NCBI GenBank assembly: GCA_010015805.1
Contig: ML978123.1
Span: 2,976,001 to 3,040,000 of the forward strand
Length of the DNA stretch: 64,000 nucleotides
Source of the DNA: Rhizodiscina lignyota
Taxonomy: Eukaryota
Direction: 5' to 3'
Made by a program: the position numbers and the translations under genes. This document shows positions 1 through 43,272 of this stretch, piece by piece (the stretch's first letter is position 1; each line of letters opens with the position of its first letter). The notes beneath the pieces are model-generated. The model saw nothing but the letters and a program-made list of their open reading frames with translations. It was not told the DNA's origin and searched no databases.

Positions 1-3000
1 TTCCGTCATGTTCTTCTTCTTCTTCGCATTCGTTGCGTCGTCGTCATCATCTGATTCTCTTTCATTCTCTCGTGCCTCAGCTTCTCTTTCGGCCTCTGAA
101 TCAAGTTCGACACTCGCTTGCCTTTCACTCCTGCCCACGCTCTTTCCAATCTCCGGCAACGCATCATCCTTCGCCGCAGTCTTCAGGAACTTGATGCTGC
201 CCTTCTTCTTTAACTCGTCTCTTGCCATCTTATGCAACATGGGGATAAACTTCGTCTCGAGCGTCTTGAGGACGTCTCGCACAGTGATGACATACTCTTT
301 CGCATACTCGTCACTAGGGAAGAGGTCCAAGCGCACATCGAACGTCTTCGCAGCTGCGTAAGCGACGCCTTTGCCAATCCGTTCCGTCACTTCGACCTTG
401 TCGACAATCTCAGCTATGCTCAGTCGACTGACACCCTTCGCCCAACTAACCGCCTGCTCTTTTGGCAGTGCAGAAAGTGTTCTCAATGCCATAGTCGGCG
501 TCGAAATATGCGCACTAGCGGTCATGACAATTTCCCGCAACCGTGGAATACCCAAGGTGACGTTCTTCGCCGCGTGGCCTGCCAAATGGAACGTGTTCAA
601 CGTCATCTGCGTCGATGGCTCACCGACACTTTGCGCAGCGACGACGCCAACTGCTTCTCCCGGCTCGACAATTGCCTTGAGGTACTTGTGATTCATCAGC
701 ACCTCGAAATTTTTCCTGGGGTGTTTGCCGCTGATGCCTTTCTTCTTGCTATTCAGTTCCTTGTCTGGGTTCTCGTCGCAGTACTTCCTCATGTCGCCAT
801 AGAACTTCTCGCTCGTGCTACCACCATACCTCCCCGGTTGCCACTTGGAGAGAGCAGGATCAGGAACGTCGCCTCCACCGACAGGCTCGCCCTTGGCTTC
901 TGCCTTCCTCACGGCCTTTCGCGCATTCTTCGTATACTCTTCAATCTCTTCGCTTTCATCCGAGACCTTTTTCCATTGGTCCCGCACTCCAGACCCTTCA
1001 AAGTGACTCCAGAAGTTGTTCGCCACGAAGCTGAAGTTGTTCAGATATGTTGCCTTGGCCACATCCAGTCCGTCCTCTCCATAGAGGAACTGGATCATCG
1101 ACCCATCGGCATCTCTGACAGAGGTGTCATACTCAACCCTCAGCCCCTCCATGCCCTTGACCAGACACCGCTGCAAGTATCCTGAGCGCGATGTCTTCAC
1201 AGCGGTATCAATCAAGCCCTCTCGTCCCGCCATAGCATGGAAGTAGTACTCCTGCGGTCTGACTCCCGTCAAGAATCGATCCGATATGTACCCCCCCGCC
1301 CTAAGACTGCTCTCAAAGGGCTTGAAGCAAGGCAGCGTCTTGCCCGAAACCATAGTCGGTACCCTGCGGCCTTCGAGAACTTGTTGTCCGAGATTGCAGC
1401 TGATGAGGTTGGCGTTGACCTGCGAGCCCTTCGCGCCGGAAGAGGTCATGGCTTGCATTTGGTTCTTGGGGAAGGGCTTGTCAAGACCGGCTGGGAGACA
1501 GGCACGCGTGATGTCTGAGGAGAGCTGTGCGGCGCCCGCTTTCATCAGGTCATCGAGGGTGGCTTGCTTTGAGTCGTCGCGCATGACGTCTTCCAGCCGC
1601 CGCAGGAGCTCGGGGTCGGTGGATTGCGGCTTCGTTGGCGCTTGGTCAAGCGAGACGTACTTGGATGCGACTTCGAGACCTAGTGTTTCTGCACCTTTGA
1701 GCTTCTCGAGTCTGTCACGGTTGCCTTTGGGTGTTAGGATCAAGTCTTCGACACCGCAACTAAAAGCGCGGATGTGCAGGACTTTGGTGAGGAGACGCGA
1801 CAAAACGCTTAATAGCCGACCGGCAACGACATGCCCGTAAGTTTCGTAGACTGCATGCACGAGCCCACCCTTTGACGGACCAACTTGCGCTTTGTCGAGG
1901 ATACCGTGAAGCAGATATCCTTCTCGGAAGTGGATGTCTTGTTCCTCTGAACCGTCACCCCATTGCGCTTTCGAGGTTGATGATTTCGAAGTAAGATTAA
2001 GAGGCTGGTGGCCGACGGGGATGAGGTTTTTGAGGACGGTAGTGATCACTTGTTTGCCCGTCCATAGTGGTTTGGGCTTCCATATTGTCGGTGGAATAAC
2101 CTCGAGTCTGCCGGATGCGGTGTGGTTATGCTCTGGTCGAAGAGCAGCATACAGAAGTTGATGGTACTCTTCTTCGTTGAAAAAAGTATCGCGCTTGGTT
2201 AACTGAACGCCCATTGAGATGTGATCCTGAATAAGACCGCGCAGTGGCTTTCCAGCCGTCGCAGAGAGATACTGGTGGTCCGTGTCCGCAATGCTGACAG
2301 CCTCTGCTCTTGCAACCTCATTCTGGGGGAAGTGCATGTTCATTTCGTCGCCGTCAAAATCTGCATTGTAAGTGTTGCAATTCGCGTAATGCATTCGAAT
2401 CGTTCGTTCGGCGGGCAACACTCTTGCACGGTGGGCCATCATAGACGGCTTGTGCAGCGTTGGTTGGCGGTTCATGATGACAATGTCACCATTGTTCAGA
2501 TGCCTATGGACTTTCTTGCCTCTTGTGCCGTTCACATGCGTATTCGATGGTGCCATCAGCTGATTCGCGATCCCAAGTCGCTCATCGGCAGTCTTGTGCT
2601 GCAGATTGATAACCTGGCCATTTTCATTCTCCACCGCTGATGCTCCAGGCCAGACATCCGGCCCATTGACCACGGCCTGATGAAGCTCGTAGTAATTATG
2701 GCTCCCAACAGGCTCCGGATATGTCAATTTCTTTGCGAATACGGGCGGCACTCCAATCTCATTGGTCTCGATGTTTGGGTCGGGAGAAATGACACTACGA
2801 GCAGCAAAGTTGACACGCTTGCCCATCATGTGTTTTCTAAACAGGCCTTCTTTCTTCTCAAGCTTCTGCTTGATCCCATCTTCTACACGCTTCGCTGCAG
2901 CTCCAGTAACTGGACTCTTGGATTTGTCGATGAGAGCGTTGACGTCATCTTGTAGCTTTATCCAATCTCTTTGCAAGTGATCTATAGTTCGTCGTTGTCG

Positions 3001-4427
3001 GCCACTTTCGAGTACATCTGGCCCGTCAGCCAAGATTTCTTCTTGAATCTGTCGAATCGTGTCTGCGTCGTTTATGATGTTCTTGTAGAGTGTATTTTGA
3101 GGCGCCTCGGCGATCTCGTCGTTTCCAGTCTTTGCTTCTGGTCGAAACCTGTTTGGTGGAACTAACAGGGTCTTGATGAAGAACATATTTGCGCTAGGTC
3201 GCTGAAGACGCCCATTTTTTGACCTTGAGCCGTATACTAGGCCGAGTACTTCCGCTTCCTGCTCAAATAACAGACTCAATGAAGCGTGAACTTCGTCTGC
3301 GTGGATAAACTCTTGCTTTGTGTCTGCAGCGGTCTTTGATTTCCGTGCTTTCGCGGTAGTCGTGGCTGTGATTACATCTGATGCATTGATGACCGCAGAG
3401 TCACCGTCACTTTCGGAGTCCTCACCGTTGATATCCTCGCCATCGTCCTCAGAACTCGGTTCTGGACTCTCCATATCTGCAATGCCTTCATCAACATGCC
3501 CATTGGGCATTTTGTCGTGCTTCTTTTTGGCCATCTGCGCAGCCCTCTCTCGCTTCGCCAGGATTGCCGTCGCACTCTCCACTCTCTTGCCAGCCTGAGC
3601 CATTGCAGCTTTCTCCTTATCCGTAAGAGACTTGCGAAAGATTTTTGCAAATCTATCCTTCCTGTACTTCGGCGAGATACCCTGGCAGCTTTTGCAGTTT
3701 CTCACCTGGCTGATCTTCCACAGAAACTCTTTGATAACAGTGCGTCGCGCCTGGCCGATAGCTTCGACTTTTTCGCTTGATAAGTCTGCTCTTCTGCCTT
3801 CACGTCCTGCGAGCTTGATTGCCCTCTGGACGAATGTATGTCTCTTCTCGATTACAGTATCTCGATCATTGTCCGAGTCGCTCGATGACTCTTCAGCCAG
3901 CGCCAGCGTTGGGGCACCAGCAGCCTTGTATCTCTTCTCAAACGTTCCCAGCAAATGCAAATCGTCGACTTGTTCTGCTTCGTTGAGGAGGCCGTGTCGG
4001 AGGAGTCGTAGCTTGCAGGCGAATCGGTTGGCCTCGACTCTCGAGAGCCGAAACCGATGGCAATATATGCACTGCGCATTGAGTAGTCGCAGGGTCTGGT
4101 CCATATAATTGGGATGGTATACGTGAACGGGCAGCTCGATATGGCCGCAGTGGCCAGGGCATGAGAAGCGATTCAGTTTGCATGTTGTACAACTATTTGA
4201 TATTAGATCATACCTCCATATCATGGGAATATAATTTAAGCTTACGCTGCATCTCCAAAGGCGCCTAATGCAGTATCATACATGCCCCCGGGCACAGGAT
4301 GGAGCAACGAGTCGAAAGTGGTGCCATTTACGATGCGCTTTACTGATATGGATTTGATCTCTTCCTCGGTGAGAAAACCAAAGTCAACCCCCGAAATCGA
4401 GGAGAAGACCGGTTTGGAGATATTCAT
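1..4427 (-). CDS. RPA190: DNA-directed RNA polymerase I largest subunit (3' end runs off the window)
   Basis: ATG at 4427 (MNISKPVFSSISGVDFGFL). Removing a GT-AG intron at 4245-4193 restores the Zn motif CTTCKLNRFSCPGHCGHIEL. The frame continues through KKEGLFRKHMMGKRVNFAARSVISPDP, NRQPTLHKPSMM and the catalytic YNADFDGDEMNMH. Confidence 0.97.
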
Positions 4428-24444: not shown

Positions 24445-24906
24445 TCAATTCTTCTCCCTCTTCTCATCCATGTTCCATGCGGACTGGCCGCTCGAGTTGC
24501 CTCTATCGCCCACGTTGTAGCTCATGTCCCGAGTATCGATCTGGTTTGTTTGTGCACTGTTGCATCGTTCTCCGCAATTTCCACTACAGTAAGCTGCATG
24601 CATGTAGCTTATGTTCCGATTATCGATCTGGTTTGTCTGTGTCCCGTTGCACCGTCTTCCGCAATTCCCGTTGCAGTAATCTGCGTGCACATATCCATCG
24701 GCAGTAACAAATGAGCCGCGAGTCGCTTGAGAAGGTTGCTGAGAATAGGGTGGTGGTGATGTCGTCGACGATTCGACCAAGTCCTTGTTGTTGTTCGCAC
24801 CGGTATGACTATGTTTATTCTCCTCGTACTTGTTGAATTCCTTGAGACCCGTTCGGACGATGGCATAGGCACCGCCCAATTTAACGGCTTCTTTGAGAAG
24901 ACCCAT
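24445..24906 (-). CDS. Small hypothetical protein with a PPPY motif and two tandem HxxYCxGNCGxRC repeats
   Basis: 153-aa ATG ORF; TATA-like TATAAAAG on the minus strand near 25160; codon-phase internal duplication. Confidence 0.75.
   Translation of the reverse strand: MGLLKEAVKLGGAYAIVRTGLKEFNKYEENKHSHTGANNNKDLVESSTTSPPPYSQQPSQATRGSFVTADGYVHADYCNGNCGRRCNGTQTNQIDNRNISYMHAAYCSGNCGERCNSAQTNQIDTRDMSYNVGDRGNSSGQSAWNMDEKREKN
24520..24693 (-). repeat. 2 x 87-bp tandem duplication (29-aa unit)
   Basis: atcgatctggtttgt recurs at 24535 and 24622. Units: YVHADYCNGNCGRRCNGTQTNQIDNRNIS and YMHAAYCSGNCGERCNSAQTNQIDTRDMS. Confidence 0.9.
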
Positions 24907-25868
24907 GATGAAAGAGGAAGCGGAAGCCGACTTGTTGAGCTGCTATTCTGGAATTGTATGTGCTCTTAGACAGGTTCCTGGCGTTGATGTCTTTGGATGT
25001 TGGTAGCGATTCGTGAAGAGAGAAAGGGTCAAGTTCGTTCGCTGAGTGGATGGAGGGTTCGGCGGTTAGTGGTTGATTCCGTGAGGAAGCAGGTGAATGA
25101 TGAGTGCATGCAATGTCTGGAAGGAAATATATCTTCGTAGAGCGAAATATCAACCTCTTTTATAGACATTTCTGAGCTTTGAACTTTGGTTGGGGCATTG
25201 CCCTCTTGAGTCGCAATCGTCGTTGGCTTTGAGCAGGCTGAGCATGCCCACAGCAAATTGCGGCCAATCAACAAGGGATCCGAGTCCGAGACGCGTCTTG
25301 CGCCCAATGAACGAGGCTTCCGAGCCCGAGTACGAGCATGCTTGCAAGGGAACACTGCCGCCAACGAGCTGAAACCCGCTTCAAGGCGTCCTTCGCGAGG
25401 TCGGCGCGACCGCATCACCAGAGTTTATCTGCGGCATTATGTACAGTGCTTTGTAAGGAATGACCTCACGGCAATTGAATGGCTAAGTCTAACACGTAGC
25501 AGGTAGCAGTTGCCGTCGGACCTATTGTACGATAAGCTCACCACAAGAGGCTAATAAGGAGACATGGAAGCACTCTCAGTCGCTGGAATACCTACTCTTC
25601 GGAGCAAACATCTCCGAATACTTCGTGACTAACTCTTGGAGACCGCGGTACGGAAAATTGATAGTATCTTACAAAATGACATAGTCTTGCCGTTTGCGCA
25701 ATTGCGCCTCAGTGCAGCCGTGTTAAACGTGTTAAACCTTGTTGCGATTGTTAGGAGATCTAAGAGTCTAAGTTGGCTCATGTTCTAGCGCTTGCAATTT
25801 GTTCAGTAAATAGAGGAATAGCTATTAAGAAAAAGAGAAGGAAAAAAAGGTAAAATAAAAATGCAAAA

Positions 25869-26001
25869 GAATAGGTCTGATCCCCGCGGGATTCGAACCT
25901 ATTCCCCAGACCTGACAGCCCCAGCCGGTTGGTTGGAGGTGTGCAGGAGGAGCAAGTACAGCTCAGGTGAAGTCGGGGCTAACCCCTTGAGCCATACTGC
26001 C
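25869..26001 (-). ncRNA. tRNA-like RNA polymerase III unit (pseudo-tRNA, SINE head or unknown ncRNA); not a canonical tRNA
   Basis: Minus strand starts GGCAGTATGGCTCAAGGGGTTAG (T8, G10, A14, G18G19 = A box at tRNA positions). Perfect B box GGTTCGAATCC, T-runs immediately 3', TATTTATA ~35 nt upstream. Acceptor and T stems do not pair. Confidence 0.65.
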
Positions 26002-26137
26002 TTTTCGATCCGTTAGCTAGAAAATTGAATTTAGTATAAATATGCATAATGCGAAAATACCACGCGCTGGTTTAACCCCACAATAGCTTTATTCTTTCAA
26101 ATACGACTAGCTTCCCACCTTCTCAGTCGCCTTCTTC

Positions 26138-27143
26138 TCAAGATAAGTAGCCTTCCATCTCCATTTTCTTCGCTGTCCACTCCTCCAATTTGGCAGCGAG
26201 ATCCATATCCTTGGCTTTGCTGCTCTGCCAACCTGGTTCGGCTATGCGCTGGAAATAACTACCACTTTGTTCGCTTTTCATTTCTGGACTTGCTGCACAA
26301 AACACGCTGGTCCACGATCCCTTGTCCGAATCCATTCTTCCACCAAGAGAGCCGTACACGTTGACCAAAGCCTTCACGACACGAGGGATCTCCGCATGCT
26401 CGCCGATGTGGCTATCTACCAAGCCTGGATGGACGATTGCAGTCCAGATCTCACCATTTTCCGCTTTCGCGCTGGGCGAGCTAGGGCCATAAAGCTTGTT
26501 GAGGCTTTTGGCATGGAGGATATTCGCGAGTTTGGACTGGCCGTAGCGAGCCATGCCGCCGCCGTTTGCAAGAGACGTGTCGGCAAAGTTGATCCCTTCT
26601 TTTGGAGCGGAGTAGTGGCCCGACGAAGACAAGTTCACAATGCGCACACTTCCAGGAGACAGTGTCTTGGATGTAGCCAGCATGAGTGGGAGTAGATGGT
26701 ATGTGAAAACCCAGTGTGCGAGGTAATTTGTTTGCCACTGAGCTTCGTACCCATCCTTGGTCATCTCGAATGGAGTGGCCATAATGCCGGCATTATTGAT
26801 CAATCCATGGAGGACAGATTCTCTTGACACAACAAGTTTCGCGGCGGAAACGACGCTCGAGAGATTCAAGTGGTCCAACTTCAAGAGGGTTATCCGGGCA
26901 TTCGGGTACGAGGTCTTGATGTTCGAGATGGCAGTATTTCCTTTGGAAGGCGAGCGAGCACATAGGTAGACATGAGCACCATGCTGTGCGAGACGGGCAA
27001 CAGTGGAATAACCTCTGATGAAACGTAAATCACTCTGCTCATTAGATGTGGAAGGGTTCTGGTACTGACATGCCCGAGTTTCCGCCAGTGACAACGAATA
27101 CTCTACCACTGAGATCTGGGAGAGAATCAGGATGAAATGCCAT
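26138..27143 (-). CDS. Short-chain dehydrogenase/reductase (retinol dehydrogenase-like)
   Basis: MAFHPDSLPDLSGRVFVVTGGNSGI/GY across intron 27069-27015, INNAGIM, RIVNLSS, catalytic YGQSK, VHPGLV. Confidence 0.92.
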
Positions 27144-27620
27144 CTTTGAAATGAACAATTACAGTCGTAATATCGTCTTAGAAGAAGGTTATACGATATC
27201 TCAAGGCAAGAGGATGATGGGGAGAGTATCGGCTGGAACGCAAAGGGGTATTATCAGACCGTGCGTCGGATACCACTGCGACTACGCCGGCCACCATGTT
27301 TGCCTAGAGATTCCGTGAATAGAGGAAGAATGCGAGCTAAGCCTTGAGGTTCACGTTGCGTGGTCCACCTTCATGATGCGAAGCCAATAGAGTTCAGGGG
27401 TCTCGTCCCAATTCAGCCAAACGTGGAGGTAAGCCAGGTGCATGGAGCTAGGCACCGAATTGGTTAATGCGCATCTCCACCGAAATCGCATCCATACCAA
27501 ACCCGATTATCATTAGTGTAATCCAGTCATCGGCCGCGTCAATTGCGCAGCCGCCACCTTGATTCTCCAAGCCTCAATCAAGACTTCTTTTGAAACTGCT
27601 TGAGCACGTCACCGAGCATA

Positions 27621-33193: not shown

Positions 33194-35899
33194 ATGGAAG
33201 ACGATCATCCCACCGGCCTTCGCGCGCAAATATTGCTTGCGTCTTTCCGGCTTCTGTTGCGCTCGATCATGTTGCAAGCTCTTCGCCATCTAGCTTGGTG
33301 CCTCTACCTTCACATTTTCAACTTTCCAATTCTGACGTTCTCCGCCAATAACCCGATTGTCTTTATCCCATTGATATTTAGTCCAAATCACTGGAAGTTC
33401 AGAACTCGATGGTCATCTACCACCGGTGTCCGACTCGGCTTGAAAAACGCGCTCATCACGTTCGCATTATGGGTCCTTATAGTTCGAGCTCTCCATAATG
33501 ATTCGTCACCTCTGGCTACCACGCGACTAAACAGTATCATATGGCAAGCTTGTAAGTCAAGAGTCTGCTTCTGGGGCCATTCCATCATATGCAGATGCTT
33601 TTTCGGTACAGACTATGGTACTCGACTCGCTCTTCTGTGGTTCAGAACTCTCTTATGGTACCGTGAAAAGATCACCCACACCTTTTTGCCACTTGGCAAG
33701 ACTTGTCTGCTGTTATTTGTGTTACTGACTCACTGGATTCAGCTGATATGGCGAGTCATTTGTCAGTGCCTTGAAAATATCATTGTGGAGATCATTGAAC
33801 TCCATCTTGAAGACTTTTTGGCTGTGTTTATCGTGGATGGTATTACCATGGGCATCCAAGACGATTCATCTTTTGGGTACAGCCATTGGATTACTTGGAC
33901 AGGCATTTCAATCTTGCTTTTCACTGTCGTCTTGCAGGTGCAGAGACGACCACAGACTTAGGCTCACCTCTGTAAAAATTCTTTAGAGCCGCTGGAATCC
34001 TTCAATTACAGCCCTCTGAAAGGTGACAAGCATATTCGCCTCCTTCTGATCCATCCAAAGCAATCTGACAGTAAATTGAGATGCGCGTTGTTTCAGACAC
34101 CCCTATATTCAGCACCACGCTATGAGGCTATACCATATTGCTGGGGAGATCCCAAGAAATGTGCCAATATCTCTGTCAACGGTCGGTCGGTCGAAATTAC
34201 TTCAAACGCACTAGAGGTATTGAATTGGCGAAGCTCTAATTTATTACCAAAACTGATCTGGATCGATTCCATCTGCATTAACCAAGGAAACGAGGACGAG
34301 AAACTTCATCAAATTGAGCTCATGGAGGACATCTACAGCAAAGCGTCTCTTGTGACTGCAGTTCTTTTACCAACTGCTGAGAAATTGAACGTACGCAAGG
34401 AATACGACGAACTTTTTGGACCGCACCTGACAGAGTATATTCTCGGTACAGATCACGCTCAAGAGAAAGGTCAGATCCAAAATATTCTCTACAAGGACGC
34501 TGTAGCATGGCAGGCTATGCATGTCTTAGAAGATGTCAGCCTATCTTACTTCCAAACCGAGTCCGATCCGATCGCGATGTACTGGAAATTTGCTCCTCAG
34601 CGATACTCATTTCGCCTCAAAGCTCTTCGCGAATTTCTGTCGAATCCTTGGTTTGAGCGTATGTGGGTTTTGCAAGAGATAGCGCTGGCACATTCTTTCC
34701 GATTCATGTACGGAGATATTACGATCCCATGGCAACGTGTGTTGGAAGTCACGCAGGTTACAACAAGAAATTCAGGGCTAGCTGGACCGCTGTTTCTATC
34801 AACTGATAAAATTGGCCATCGAAAAGCACTATCAGCTGCTTGCGAAACATTTCCAACAATTTGTAGGATTCGAAATGCAATCAGAGACGATGAAAACCGC
34901 TCTCTCGCAACAATACTTCTGCAGTGCCGAAACTTCAAGTCGACCAACCCAGAAGACAAGCTCTTTGCAATACCAGAGAAACTGCTGAAGCCGACGGAGA
35001 GCAAAAACATGACTATGGAAACGTTGTTGACTAATGCAGCTGAATGCATAGTAGCTGAAGGCGATACAGCTCGGATGCTGGCAGTTGCAGGTATTGACTC
35101 CAATGGAAGCTCCACCTTGTCTCGTGTTTTACCATCCTGGGTTCCAAACTGGCCCGTAACGCAAACTAAGACCTGTTTATCATTCCGCAACGAAGGAATC
35201 GACTACCACGCGGGAGGCCTGGAGCCGATGCAGGCGCGAATCCAAGATCAGAACCTCTTCGTGTTTGGTTACTCTTTTGACAAAGTCTAACAGCTCGGTC
35301 CCGTTTGTGACTACTTTCCATTGCCGACCGGTGATGCTACTGGAAATATCATTGAGGTCTGCGACAAATTCCGGAAATCCATCAAAGTAGTAACAGACTC
35401 GAACCGGGCAAATAATCTAAACTCTGAAGCCAAGAGGAAGGACCTGCAAGATGCGCTCTGGAGGACCATGATAGGAAATCGGACATTCACAGAATACCCT
35501 GCTCCGGCGCAAGTGGCTGAATCCTTCAAGCAATCCTGCACTTTCCTAGACAAGGCTGCCAACGATCCTTCAATACTGTCCAGTACCGAAGGCATCGGGA
35601 CAGCGGAGCTGAAAAAACTACACTCGATGAGAGAATTCGTGCACCCCATGTGGCAATGTCTAGTAGGGAGAAGAATATGCATCACTGTAAAAGGATTTCT
35701 TGCAGTTGTCGCTTCTATGACAGAGAGGGGAGATGAGATCATTGTGTTGGTGGGAATGCAAACTCCTTCTGTCATTCGAAGTTTGGAAATCGACGGTTCC
35801 ATACAGCGACAGTACATAGGAGAGTGCTATGTACACGACATCATGAACGGCGAAATTTGTCAACAAGGCATTCCCAGAGAACAGTTTATATTAAGATAG
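33194..35899 (+). pseudogene. Membrane-anchored HET-domain (Het-6-like) gene interrupted by two in-frame stops
   Basis: ORFs 33194, 34076 and 35321 share one frame, broken only by TAG 33959-33961 and TAA 35288-35290. HET motifs YSPL...IRLL, YEAIPYCWG, IWIDSICINQ, MEDIYSKA, WFERMWVLQE, LPSWVPNW, YIGECYVHDIMNGE. Confidence 0.8.
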
Positions 35900-37900: not shown

Positions 37901-40012
37901 CTAGCTTTCTGAATTCATGTACCATGCTTTAAGTGCCTCGTCGATATCGATTGTTGAATATTCAAGGTTGTAGAACTGAAGCGGAATCGTATACGTCGAG
38001 GCGGTCGCTTTGTACTCGAGAGCAGCCGCCCTCAGCACTTTTGCAAGTCGTTTCGCCAGTGGCCACCGTTGACTTAGAAGACGCATAGAATATATCAATA
38101 AATCCACGCTGGGCGGAGCCTCATTCCCGGTAAATGCGGCATATGCTGATGTGATTCAATTAGCCACAGAGCTGAGTACGGGTCGGGTCAGATAATTTCA
38201 GTAAGGAAATAGCCTACCCAACAAGAACCGTGCTGCGGTAAAGACGGAACAGATGATAAATGGACAGAACCATGAAAGCTCCTTATCAGCAATACACCTT
38301 ACAGTTTCACAAGTATCTCCTACTGCATCAAGACATCGTTGGGCGGCGTGGGGCCAGATGTGGTTCGTGTGTTGACTATTGTGGATAGACACCCTCTGGT
38401 ACATTGAGATGACGGCACTAAAGTCTCATCAGCACGGATGGACCGAAATCAACAAGAGCTGCACTCACAAATTCGCCAAACACCTTACTAACGTCATATT
38501 CGTGCCGAATCCGGCTCTGGCCACATCTCCAGGTCTGCTTTGAGATGCCTTGCAAAGCGAATCCGTGAGATTGGCACGCCAAGTGGACAATATTTCATCA
38601 AGTTCTTGACATTTGTTCTGCCAAAGCGATCGCTCCGGAAGAGAGTTGAGATCAAACTTCTGCTGCATGAATTTTTGCACCTGGTAGAGCGGACCGGAGA
38701 CAAATTCGACGTAATTTGTGAATGAAATGGACGGATTCGGAGGCTGGACATCAGAATAGCCATTCATCGTCCAAACTTCATCGCTACAAGGCAGAATATC
38801 AGACTCGGTCACGCTGACCAACGAGAGATTCCAACTGGCGCCAACAGTTGATACGTTGTCCAGGATTTCCGCCATCCAGTAGGCCCGCACTCGTTCCTCT
38901 TGCTCGATCAGGTTTGGGGGAAGAGAGAGCATTCGCGGTGGTCTCGAAGAAGGCGAATTGAAGTTTTCTCCATGGTGCACGATGAGATCCTGAAGACCGA
39001 GCTGCGTTCCCATTCTGATCTCGGTCAGCGAAGACGCGACAGTTCAGACTTGCTGAGTGACAGACCTCTTGGAAACGGCAATCAGATTCCAAAAATCTGA
39101 CATATTCCCCGAGCTGTAATCTACAACAGCCAAAATGAGCAGGGCCTGAAGAGAATGTAGGCATACGCTACTTAATGCCTTAGCTACCACCTCTGCTCGA
39201 AGAGTGCGAGGGAGCTCTTTTCGTGTCTCCTCGCTACAGTTCAACTCCACGTCGAGCATTGTATATGGTAACACTGTGGCGACCAATGCTTCGAACACTA
39301 TTCGCTGTGGGATTTGGCTCACATGTATCGAAGTTTCTATGAGCCCTTCAATGGTTATCCGATGCAGGACCGGGAACCAATCATGGAAGTGATGGAACCA
39401 AGTTGTGCACACTGGGCGCAGAATATGTAGCGCCAGAGGGTCAAAAGCATTGCTGCATGAAGAACTGAGCGACTCAGTTGCATTGACATGGGTCGATGAA
39501 GAGATTGCATCTATCGGAGGGTTTTCGGTGGGTTCGCGATCTTCGGGGATAGCTGTGCTGTGCGTCAGAATGTGAATCCATGCAAAAATTCCACACGGGA
39601 CGAATAGACTCACTTGAGCGTTGTTGTTTGAGAAGGCGAACCTCCTCCTCCAGGACAGCTACTTCCGAGCTAAGCAGAAGTCGCCACAAAATATCAAATA
39701 GCATTACTCAGTCTATTTTCCAGCTCTGCAACATAGCCCGCTCGGAGGCCAGGTCTCCTTTTACCGACCGCATACGAGCATGGACGCTTGCTCCTTCGGC
39801 AGTAACCACAAGATGGAAGTACGCGATCGCATTTCACTTTCCTTTGCCTACAAAGCAAGCATCTAGATGCGTCCCGTTAGTTGGTGGGGCACACATGATG
39901 CCGAGAGATCGAGAACATACACTGTCTTGCTGTGGCTTGATCCCTCATTTTCATCAGTAGGAGATCTTGTGTCCCTATGTGGCGATTCTGGACTCTCATT
40001 CACCGTAGACAT
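37901..40012 (-). CDS. Zn(II)2Cys6 fungal transcription factor (multi-exon)
   Basis: After intron 1: CLLCRQRKVKCDRVLPSCGYCRRSKRPC...PGLRAGYVAELENRL. Middle homology region (WFPVLHR, LQALLIL, EQEERVRAYW) and C-terminal RWPLAKRL. Internal exon edges approximate. Confidence 0.88.
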
Positions 40013-41010
40013 GGCGCTTCTCTTCTCTCAAAGACACGAGGAAGAGCGCTGCGAGAGATGGCCCGAACGCCGCAAGGGAAAAGAGTATGGAACGCGACAT
40101 GGAGGCCCATTGGAAGGTCGAGTGCGGGGAAGTCGAAGCGGAGAGTAGCATGATATGTAGGGTCTGCCCCACATTAGCATAGGATTTGCATAACCACTCA
40201 TTGAGTTGCGAGAGATTAGCGTGTGGTGGTTTGTGGTTAGCTAAGGAGACGCCCCTATTTTCTTACAATGGAGATGGCCGTTTCGGGCCATGTCTTGCCG
40301 ACACGCGTCGCGCGTAGAGCATCTCCCGTCGCGATTTGTTCACCATCCGTCCTCTGTGCGTCTCCATGTCACATATGCAAAGCAGCATAGAGTGTGTAGG
40401 TTAGGTTTTAATGCGAGGTTTGGCCTCCTTCGCGTGAGTGATGTACGATCTGTACTTCAAATGTCTCGGAAGCTGCGGTCAACATTTTGGCTGAGGGACG
40501 CTTAAGCAGGTTTACCTTCTGTTCACCAATAATAATTAGGCCTTTAGTACTGACCTACGCGCTGGCAGAAAGCTACCCAACTTGTGGTGACAGGTAAATC
40601 TCACTGCTTCGACGGCGCTCGGGCTAATGTGCAGAGTGCGGACTAAACGTTGCTAATCGCGGCCGCATTGTCCGCCTTTTTATCTCGCACAGCCTCTTCT
40701 TGGAGCAGCACATCTAGCTCTTCATCACAACTATCGCACCTTCTGCGTCTCCGTTGCGCAGACCCACGCCATCTGCGGAAGCTAGACTGACAACGGGAGC
40801 GAAATCCAACCTTGGTTCGCATGGGTAGTGACCTCGTTGCGCGTTTTGTCGGAGCAGCTGAGCTGTTCGGCATTTCAGTGGCGCAGGCAGAAATATATCT
40901 TTTCTGCACTGCCTTCCCAGTTTCCAAGTCTTTTATCGCATTTTTCCCCCTCTACCGAATGCATCAAGAACTTCATTGTTCGTCAAAGCAGAGATTTGGT
41001 TTGCTGCGCA

Positions 41011-43272
41011 ATGACTACTGTCTGCTCTTGCCTTTCTGAGGATCACCCGACCGGCCTGTGTGTTACCTGTCGGCGGGTTAATTTTTTCACCTCCCCAGAG
41101 AGCGAAGAAAAAGATCTGGGAATAGGCTCTTTGGAGCACATTTCGAAGAAGCGGTCCTGTCCCGGCTGTCGACTCATCCTCTCACTTGCTCTCCCATTCT
41201 GCCCCGAGAGCGATCGATTTAACGATACCTCAATTATTCTTCAGCGCCGCCACACTCATGTTTTTAGAAGAAGGCCGACTGTGTCATTCGAAGGAGATGG
41301 ACAGTCGTCTACGGGAATGATTTGCGCCGATGATGATCATATTGGGGTTGTGGTCGACCCTCACCGTGACCTTCACCATCGCAAAGTTGTTGGAACAATA
41401 GCCAGGAAGTTCAAACCAGATGCAACATCAATAGCTCCAACAAGCACAGCGTTTACTTCCGAAGATAAATTTAACTGTGGAGGCCGTGAAGTCCAACCAG
41501 AGGCCGATATCAACTTGATCAAAGATTGGCTGCGATTCTGCAACACTTGGCACCACGAATGTCGACAACCAATCTATGAGGTAGCTGGGAAGCCCAAATT
41601 TCGTTTGATTGATGTTCAAGAGCAAAGAGTTGTCTGGGCTGCCTCGGGACAAGACTATGTTACGCTGTCATACGTATGGGGCCAGTCCACCATGCCACTG
41701 CTCACTCGAGACGTTGTATCCAAATATTCTTCTATCAATGGATTGAAAGCCTGTAATATGCCACGAACCATCTCCGACGCGATACATCTTGTGAAGCTTC
41801 TTGGCGAGCGGTATCTTTGGGTCGATACCCTTTGTATTGTGCAGGACGATGACGAAGATAAGGAGGACCAGCTTCCTCTGATGGGATATATTTACAGTCA
41901 TGCAATATTTCTTATAGTAGCCGCTGCTGGCAGTGATGCTCATGCAGGGCTTCCTGGTTTACAAGGTACCAAACGAAACATATCACAGCGGATCGAAACC
42001 ATTGATGGAGCGCAATTTATCACAGCTCAGCCCGAACTCAAGCACATGCTAGAAAATAGTGTATGGAATATACGGGGTTGGACCTTTCAAGAGATGGTAC
42101 TCTCTCGGCGTTCCATCATATTCACCGAGGCACAAATCAGCTGGATCTGCCAGGCTGAGTCATGGAGGGAAGGCATCAAAACCGAATCTTCTGTCTTTAT
42201 GAGGGTACGAGATCGTGATAATTCCCCATTGACTCCTTTTGTCCGCACATCAGAGTCTGAAAACTGGTCCTCGGTGTCACCTTGCCGCACGAGCGTATAC
42301 TGTCAACAAGCTCAGTTGTTCTCTGGAAGAAATTTCAAAGTGGAAAGTGATGTTATTTGGGCATTTATGGGAATACTCCACTTCTTAACCTCTCTTTTTC
42401 CAGGAGGATTCATCTGGGGCATTCCGTATGAATCAATCGATGCAGCACTGCTCTGGTCAGAGGACACCTTCTGTCACAATGTCCACTCACGTTATGCACA
42501 ACATACAATGCTGAGGAAAGGTAGCCTCTATGGACTTCCATATCCATCATGGTCGTGGCTCTCAAGCAAGATAAGCGTCAAGTTCATGGACCTTTGCGGG
42601 GACACCATTCATTCCGAAGTCACTTGGCATGAACCTTTCAAACTGGGAGATGAAGCATCAGAGGAATTTCTTAAGTCGGTCTACCCTCTGGCGGACTCTA
42701 CCAACGACAAGCATTGGCAGGAGCTGGTGGTACGGCCTATTGAGACCTCCGAAACACAAGCCATTGACTACGGGCTACTACACTTCACAGCACTGACTGC
42801 AAAGCTTACTTTGCGGCCGAGTCAGCCAACTACTCACGTCCTAGGGTCCAATGATAGCCTACCATTGGGAGCCGACACACCATGGTATCTCAAGACTGAG
42901 AGGACTGACATAGCGGAAATCAGAGAGGACATTGGATGTATCAGGGCGACGATATATGCTTCTAATGGAGATTCAATTGGCGAGACGATGGCCCCGCTCA
43001 TATTGTTCAACGAGGATTCAGAGCGCGTTGGCGAATTTGTTCTTCTTTCGTCTACCGTTGTGGACGAAGCTGATGAAGCTTGCAGAGAGACGGCGGCCGG
43101 GCTTGATCATGGAAAGATCATACACGTGCACGGATGCAGCCATATTGAAAGTCGGAATGTCATGTTGATAGAGTGGTCTGGGCAGATTGCGTATCGGAGA
43201 GGATTAAGCAGCGTGCGAAAGGAGGACTGGGCTAAAGTCGAGACTCAGCAGAAGACAATAATCCTTGGCTGA
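41011..43272 (+). CDS. HET-domain protein (TOL-like), intact
   Basis: About 753 aa, intronless. WLRFCNTWHHEC, FRLIDV, YVTLSYVWG, PRTISDAI...YLWVDTLCIVQDD, MGYIYSHA, WNIRGWTFQE, YPSWSW. Confidence 0.9.
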   Translation: MTTVCSCLSEDHPTGLCVTCRRVNFFTSPESEEKDLGIGSLEHISKKRSCPGCRLILSLALPFCPESDRFNDTSIILQRRHTHVFRRRPTVSFEGDGQSSTGMICADDDHIGVVVDPHRDLHHRKVVGTIARKFKPDATSIAPTSTAFTSEDKFNCGGREVQPEADINLIKDWLRFCNTWHHECRQPIYEVAGKPKFRLIDVQEQRVVWAASGQDYVTLSYVWGQSTMPLLTRDVVSKYSSINGLKACNMPRTISDAIHLVKLLGERYLWVDTLCIVQDDDEDKEDQLPLMGYIYSHAIFLIVAAAGSDAHAGLPGLQGTKRNISQRIETIDGAQFITAQPELKHMLENSVWNIRGWTFQEMVLSRRSIIFTEAQISWICQAESWREGIKTESSVFMRVRDRDNSPLTPFVRTSESENWSSVSPCRTSVYCQQAQLFSGRNFKVESDVIWAFMGILHFLTSLFPGGFIWGIPYESIDAALLWSEDTFCHNVHSRYAQHTMLRKGSLYGLPYPSWSWLSSKISVKFMDLCGDTIHSEVTWHEPFKLGDEASEEFLKSVYPLADSTNDKHWQELVVRPIETSETQAIDYGLLHFTALTAKLTLRPSQPTTHVLGSNDSLPLGADTPWYLKTERTDIAEIREDIGCIRATIYASNGDSIGETMAPLILFNEDSERVGEFVLLSSTVVDEADEACRETAAGLDHGKIIHVHGCSHIESRNVMLIEWSGQIAYRRGLSSVRKEDWAKVETQQKTIILG

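Follow-up and report, generated by a model that had tools for sequence, protein, structure and literature searches.

On the minus strand of the analysed window, by which we mean the whole 64-kb stretch of DNA from the Dothideomycete Rhizodiscina lignyota, lies a multi-copy element of ~180 nt (about 26013 to 25834) which is best read as a SINE-like element. The family to which it belongs is probably a low-copy, tRNA-related, SINE-like retroposon family, of which the window holds a copy with an intact promoter. The initial annotation had presented the locus as a complete gene for one structured RNA and had named a functional non-coding RNA (ncRNA), a SINE-like RNA and a TFIIIC boundary element as options. 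As a description of a single locus the complete gene does not hold, as the element is one copy of a small dispersed repeat family. Of these options the SINE-like RNA agrees with the number of copies, their dispersal over several loci and the occurrence of truncated and variant forms, whereas a unique unannotated structured ncRNA gene is disfavoured.

A TATA-like box, an A box, a B box and T-runs had been read on the minus strand, and all of them are present there (Table 1). The T8, G10, A14 and G18G19 of the tRNA-like head are all at tRNA positions. A spacer of 33 nt separates the TATA-like box from G1 of the tRNA-like 5' end, a C-rich/G-rich middle lies between the head and the B box, and the distance from the end of the A box to the start of the B box is 83 nt. 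The B box is followed by ...CCCGCGGGGATCAGACCTATTC, which ends at 25869, and then by the tail letters TTTT-GCA-TTTTT-A-TTTT-ACC-TTTTTTT. From G1 to the last C ahead of the T-run the minus strand measures 133 nt, which agrees with the ~133-nt RNA proposed before. On its own the B box is unremarkable, since its pattern occurs twice in the window when up to one mismatch is allowed and 1.15 occurrences are expected. The arrangement of an A box, 20-100 nt, a B box and a T4 run within 60 nt was found once in the window and in none of 300 dinucleotide-preserving shuffles.

Table 1. Features of the element and of the neighbouring gene, in positions of the 64-kb window.
Feature	Position	Strand	Basis or remark
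TATA-like box TATTTATA	26042-26035	-	Read from sequence; about -30 from the putative Pol III start
Candidate upstream target-site duplication TTTTCTAGCTA	26024-26014	-	Not significant
Putative 5' leader	26002..26013	-	Putative start and family-level 5' boundary near 26013-26015
tRNA-like 5' end GGCAGTATGGCTCAAGGGGTTAGCC...	G1 = 26001	-	Read from sequence
A box (T8 to G19, tRNA-like numbering)	25983..25994	-	Read from sequence
B box GGTTCGAATCC	25899-25889	-	Sole exact match in the window
T-rich tail and terminator runs T4, T5, T4, T7, then TTCTCT	25834..25868	-	Read from sequence
Candidate downstream target-site duplication TTTTCT-TAAT-AGCTA	25833-25819	-	Not significant
Predicted hairpin H1, tRNA-like head GGCAGTA-TG-GCTCAAGGGGTTAGCC, closed by TGAGC..TACTTGC	25951..26001	-	MFE; mean pair probability 0.78
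Predicted hairpin H2, C-rich/G-rich middle, no resemblance to tRNA	25906..25950	-	Mean pair probability 0.92
Predicted hairpin H3, GAATAGGT...ACCTATTC around ATCCC-GCG-GGGAT	25868..25905	-	Mean pair probability 0.89
Short-chain dehydrogenase, last exon(s), outside the element	26138..27250	-	Stop codon 26140-26138; AATAAA 26093-26088

The number of copies in the genome was gauged from the contigs of one public run (15,746 contigs, 34 Mb, 90% of the sampled words), which we aligned to 25750-26150 at a likeness of at least 80%, and the summed depth was compared with that of the flanks. The flanks have a depth of 150-156, and across 25834-26057 the summed depth is 425-3162, so that the element is multi-copy. 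The summed depth is 2585-2839 at the 5' end of the element (25988-26015), 950-1800 in the middle and 3162 at the B box. With 6 to 21 times the single-copy level we estimate ~6-20 dispersed copies in the genome. The 6-12 copies based on the middle are the safer figure, and the upper estimate of ~20 should be taken with caution, since part of the depth in the A-box and B-box bins may come from true tRNA genes.

In total 29 contig pieces match the element, 13 of them at ≥99%, seven at 95-99%, three at 90-95% and six below 90%. A 72-nt unitig identical to the window (25893-25964) has a depth of 501, corresponding to ~3 copies, and the unitig 25935-26009 with one difference from the window has a depth of 662, corresponding to 3-4 copies. 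The window's own locus breaks into unitigs inside the element, and two other long contigs (37,144 nt and 52,719 nt) terminate within it with 88-89% matches (25851-25916, 25987-26048). Other loci match the H3 region (25851-25916) at 88%. By blastn (word 7), nhmmer or repeat search, no second copy was found in the window itself. Among the pieces listed (8 of 29), one contig has only the 3' part from 25921 on, with unrelated sequence before it, and is a 5'-truncated copy; other copies, again among these eight, diverge at 25915 or 25945. A further loose end is at 25851, where other copies run on in longer T-runs, and the tail length is variable. The copies are heterogeneous, being truncated and diverging at different points, as in transposon families.

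The summed depth also marks the ends of the element. Its main 5' step, a rise from 819 (26016-29) to 2585 (26002-15), is at 26015/26016; the TATA-like box starts 30 nt upstream of this step, and G1 follows 12 nt downstream. A start near 26015 would put the A box at about +20, and a Pol III start with a short leader is the geometry expected from tRNA genes. As the TATA-like box, the position of the A box and the depth step coincide, we infer a Pol III start near 26013-26015. On the 3' side the depth falls from 1717 over 1201 and 425 to 150 across 25868..25834 and is at baseline by 25833. Within about 225 nt the depth is back at the single-copy level, and the element is therefore not part of a larger repeat at this locus.

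About three other copies, those closest to the window copy, match on upstream to 26038-26048, TATA-like box included. The summed depth there is 565-819, compared with 156 in the flank, and loose ends occur at 26038 and 26048. The ~35 nt from 26048 to 26016 on the minus strand are ~89% alike in these copies, which is unexpected for retroposed copies, as a retroposed RNA is expected to lack the region upstream of its transcription start. The 25-35 upstream nt shared by these copies suggest that DNA was duplicated, that the element is longer or that the copies have a target in common. The candidate target-site duplication is no evidence for retroposition either. It is a gapped 11-nt direct repeat exactly at the depth-defined ends of the element, and it is no better than chance: 459 of 3000 shuffles and 54 of 640 real-sequence controls score at least as high as its 15.

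The 134-nt RNA has a predicted folding energy of -58.8 kcal/mol (z = -3.57), and none of 200 shuffles was as stable. Its best fold (MFE) consists of the three consecutive hairpins H1, H2 and H3, so that the predicted RNA would form three hairpins instead of a cloverleaf. The 3' hairpin with GAATAGGT/ACCTATTC enclosing ATCCC-GCG-GGGAT, already recognised in the initial annotation, is H3; it is present in every fold and is the only strong inverted repeat at the element. In H3 one can recognise a T arm, ATAGG-TTCGAAT-CCTAT with GA/TC as an extension, which is interrupted by 15 nt that make a small hairpin of their own. Two further pairings suggested there, AGCCCC/GGGGCT and CCTGA/TCAGG, are absent from the best fold. 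They cross each other and would together form a pseudoknot, and when each is forced alone the energy is -39.6 or -44.3 kcal/mol in comparison with -59.3 kcal/mol for the best fold, a cost of 15-20 kcal/mol.

Away from the contig ends, the pieces listed (8 of 29) differ from the window copy by six substitutions and two indels; mismatches near contig ends fall outside this list, and broken pairs may hide among them. The substitutions 25934 A>G and 25923 U>C (RNA sense) occur in the same contig and affect the two partners of one H2 pair, changing A-U to G-C. The substitution 25933 A>G, found in two contigs, closes an A.C mismatch in H2. Two others, at 25885 and 25967, are at unpaired positions, and the sixth, at 26017, lies outside the RNA on its upstream side. 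Of the two insertions, one is located in the apical loop of H3 and the other, of 3 nt, in the H2 stem. Thus none of the five listed substitutions inside the RNA breaks a predicted pair. All three H2 differences are G:C in the variant and A:T in the window copy, and plain decay of the window copy explains them equally well. We also considered RIP-like decay, as the T-stem and H2 differences are all G:C to A:T. The 88% copies have 7-8 mismatches over H3.

The window is ordinary gene-rich fungal DNA, with Prp3, coatomer alpha, listerin, an M20 peptidase and HET-domain proteins. The ORF of the neighbouring short-chain dehydrogenase has 100% identity over 240 aa to 'putative carbonyl reductase [Rhizodiscina lignyota]' (NCBI). 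The element begins ~125 nt past its stop codon and is probably located just beyond the end of the dehydrogenase mRNA. Elsewhere in the window, two ORFs with HET (heterokaryon incompatibility) domains are found within 9 kb on the plus strand (33962-35290 and 40786-43272). Furthermore, two tandem 87-nt units with 82% identity (24516-24689) are located inside an ORF of 165 aa on the minus strand (24445-24942), which has no Pfam match and contains a repeated Cys/Asn/Gly-rich motif.

The element is not a tRNA, in line with the initial annotation. With default settings ARAGORN found no tRNA in the 64-kb window; with introns allowed it found nothing at the element and one spurious model elsewhere (38444-39193, with a 654-nt 'intron'), and with lowered thresholds on the element it gave one poor model, with an acceptor stem made mostly of G.U pairs. 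There were no Rfam 15 matches at gathering scores over the 64 kb, neither to the covariance models for tRNA and tRNA-Sec nor to those of any other family. At E ≤ 10, the region 25600-26300 had three weak hits to unrelated families, none of them on the element, and the tRNA models were silent. Both pairs of arms described as unpaired are indeed so: GGCAGTA of the acceptor arm has no 7-mer partner with six or more pairs at a distance of 55 nt or more downstream, and the T-stem arms ATAGG/CCCGC form only two Watson-Crick pairs and one G.U pair. A tRNA with one intron at any position is rejected, as ARAGORN called a tRNA in none of the 10,574 single-deletion versions, in which every 5-94-nt segment of 26030-25850 had been removed. 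A tRNA with two introns is excluded because GGCAGTA has no downstream acceptor partner. Random decay of a tRNA had earlier been judged a poorer fit, and this view is likewise upheld for a lone decayed tRNA, as other copies in the genome have the same non-tRNA middle and 3' hairpin, in some cases at ≥99%. As a separate observation, the ends GCTCCTC and GGGGATC of a 76-nt stretch on the minus strand (25953-25878) pair at six of seven positions and are followed by an A. This stretch is tRNA-sized and includes the B box, without an A box or a D arm; we take the pairing as chance, and the stretch may otherwise be a remnant of the tRNA from which the 3' half was derived.

Given these results, the reading as a genuine but unusual tRNA gene, with long or non-canonical introns missed by the detectors, is largely refuted and we consider it highly improbable. 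Such a gene would account for the A box at exact tRNA positions and the perfect B box, for a 5' end like the D arm of a class II tRNA, for the perfect T arm ATAGG-TTCGAAT-CCTAT that results when 15 nt (25890-25876) are taken out, and for copies that are deeper at the 5' and 3' ends than in the middle, like exons compared with an intron. It would still need a partner for GGCAGTA, for which no downstream 7-mer qualifies, and it conflicts with the outcome of ARAGORN at default and lowered thresholds, with the 10,574 deletion versions and with tRNA models of Rfam that stay silent even at E ≤ 10. Moreover, the similarity within the family reaches 14 nt upstream of the supposed +1.

The intact TATA-like box, A box, B box and terminator would also be explained if the copies were a small family of structured ncRNA genes transcribed by Pol III, with three hairpins in the RNA and the B box hidden in the last of them. 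Such genes would have multiplied through DNA duplication and been retained because they serve the cell, for example as regulatory RNA or as TFIIIC/boundary sites. The upstream promoter region found in ~3 copies speaks for such genes, as do the stable predicted fold (z = -3.57, pair probabilities 0.78-0.92) and the listed substitutions, of which two are compensatory, one closes a mismatch and two are in loops. We nevertheless regard this family as unlikely: there are truncated and chimeric copies, identity drops below 90%, the three H2 differences are equally explained by decay of the window copy, and neither the metagenome and prokaryote scans nor Rfam gave a relative outside this genome. Somewhat more doubtful still are tRNA-derived Pol III genes for a three-hairpin RNA of ~150-170 nt that form a lineage-specific functional ncRNA or chromatin-boundary family, in which the B box is built into the terminal hairpin and a TATA-bearing promoter is kept in several copies. 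If true, this family would belong to a poorly studied order of Dothideomycetes; the few variants listed, with one compensatory pair, one closed mismatch and the others in loops, are compatible with it. Finally, the element could be a fragment of some other repeat (a MITE, a solo LTR or a piece of a larger element) with incidental tRNA-like motifs, which would agree with multiple copies that share sequence upstream of the putative start and with the lack of a significant SINE-type target-site duplication. We give this little credence, since terminal inverted repeats are absent at the element (beyond the internal 3' hairpin, the only strong inverted repeat, there are just two weak pairs of 8-10 nt), its ends are not TG...CA, the depth is that of a single copy again so close by, and the full set of Pol III motifs is unlikely to have arisen by chance (0 of 300 shuffles).

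The SINE-like family is the reading that we prefer, and some features of the element count against it as well. The tail is T-rich and not A-rich on the sense strand, the flanking repeat is no better than chance and none of the 25 ORFs in the window is a reverse-transcriptase or LINE ORF. According to the available part of one source, SINE tails consist of poly A, poly T or low-complexity sequence and the A and B boxes are typically 25-50 nt apart (PMC8825457), and the spacing of 83 nt in the element is outside this range for typical SINE heads. Given the T-rich tail, duplications that do not reach significance and ~3 copies with the same 35 nt upstream, retroposition is a step that we infer only.

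For a SINE-like element of this kind, TFIIIC would recognise both internal promoter boxes (A, 25994-25983; B, 25899-25889), with TFIIIB at the TATA-like box (-30). Transcription by Pol III would then start near 26013 and stop in the T-runs after 25868. The resulting RNA, with three hairpins and no cloverleaf, would escape tRNA end-processing and might occasionally serve as template for the reverse transcriptase of an autonomous element, by which new copies would enter the genome. As judged from its sequence, the window copy, in which all promoter signals are kept, could be an active (source-type) copy.

Few SINE-like elements have been described in fungi, and in the literature searched we found none described for Rhizodiscina lignyota or its order. 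In the available part of the Rhizodiscina lignyota genome paper, the words 'SINE' and 'transposable' are both absent (PMC7082219). We searched for relatives in metagenomes with the A-box 18-mer, a gap and the B box, and with the 3' hairpin with a free loop, and found none; there were also none in prokaryote genome contigs. A copy with all Pol III signals ~125 nt behind a stop codon offers a handy case for the study of how SINE-like elements of a repeat-poor genome are transcribed and multiply, and annotators would otherwise be likely to miss or mis-call such an element. Only if the family turned out to be a conserved and expressed RNA would it open up a new kind of biology.

Among the known fungal SINEs, AfuSINE2 of Aspergillus fumigatus is, in the part of the source available, 140-493 bp long and of low copy number, with degenerate A and B boxes, partly degraded duplications, heads that do not fold as cloverleaves and insertions in gene-rich regions (PMC5063351). 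The same part of that source names Foxy, MgSINE and SINE2-1_BG as other tRNA-related SINEs of filamentous fungi (PMC5063351). By description only, and within the limits of that partial source, the element is like AfuSINE2 in being short and of low copy number with internal A and B boxes, and also in its tRNA-related head without a cloverleaf, its degraded or absent flanking duplications and its gene-rich setting. The element departs from these SINEs in its A-B spacing of 83 nt, in a B box close to the 3' end within a hairpin by the terminator, in its T-rich tail and in a TATA-like box at -30 that a few copies have in common.

With nuclear tRNA genes (type 2 Pol III; RF00005) the element shares the A box at tRNA positions, the consensus B box and the oligo-T terminator, but it has no acceptor stem or anticodon arm and its T stem is reduced to two Watson-Crick pairs and one G.U pair. 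Its upstream TATA-like box is also a likeness to some fungal tRNA genes. Such boxes are known, for example, from fission yeast. The ETC/B-box boundary elements of yeasts are B boxes bound by TFIIIC only, without the layout of A box, TATA box and terminator. The element resembles these sites in its perfect B box and its intergenic position between Pol II genes, and differs from them as a 180-nt repeat family with a full Pol III layout.
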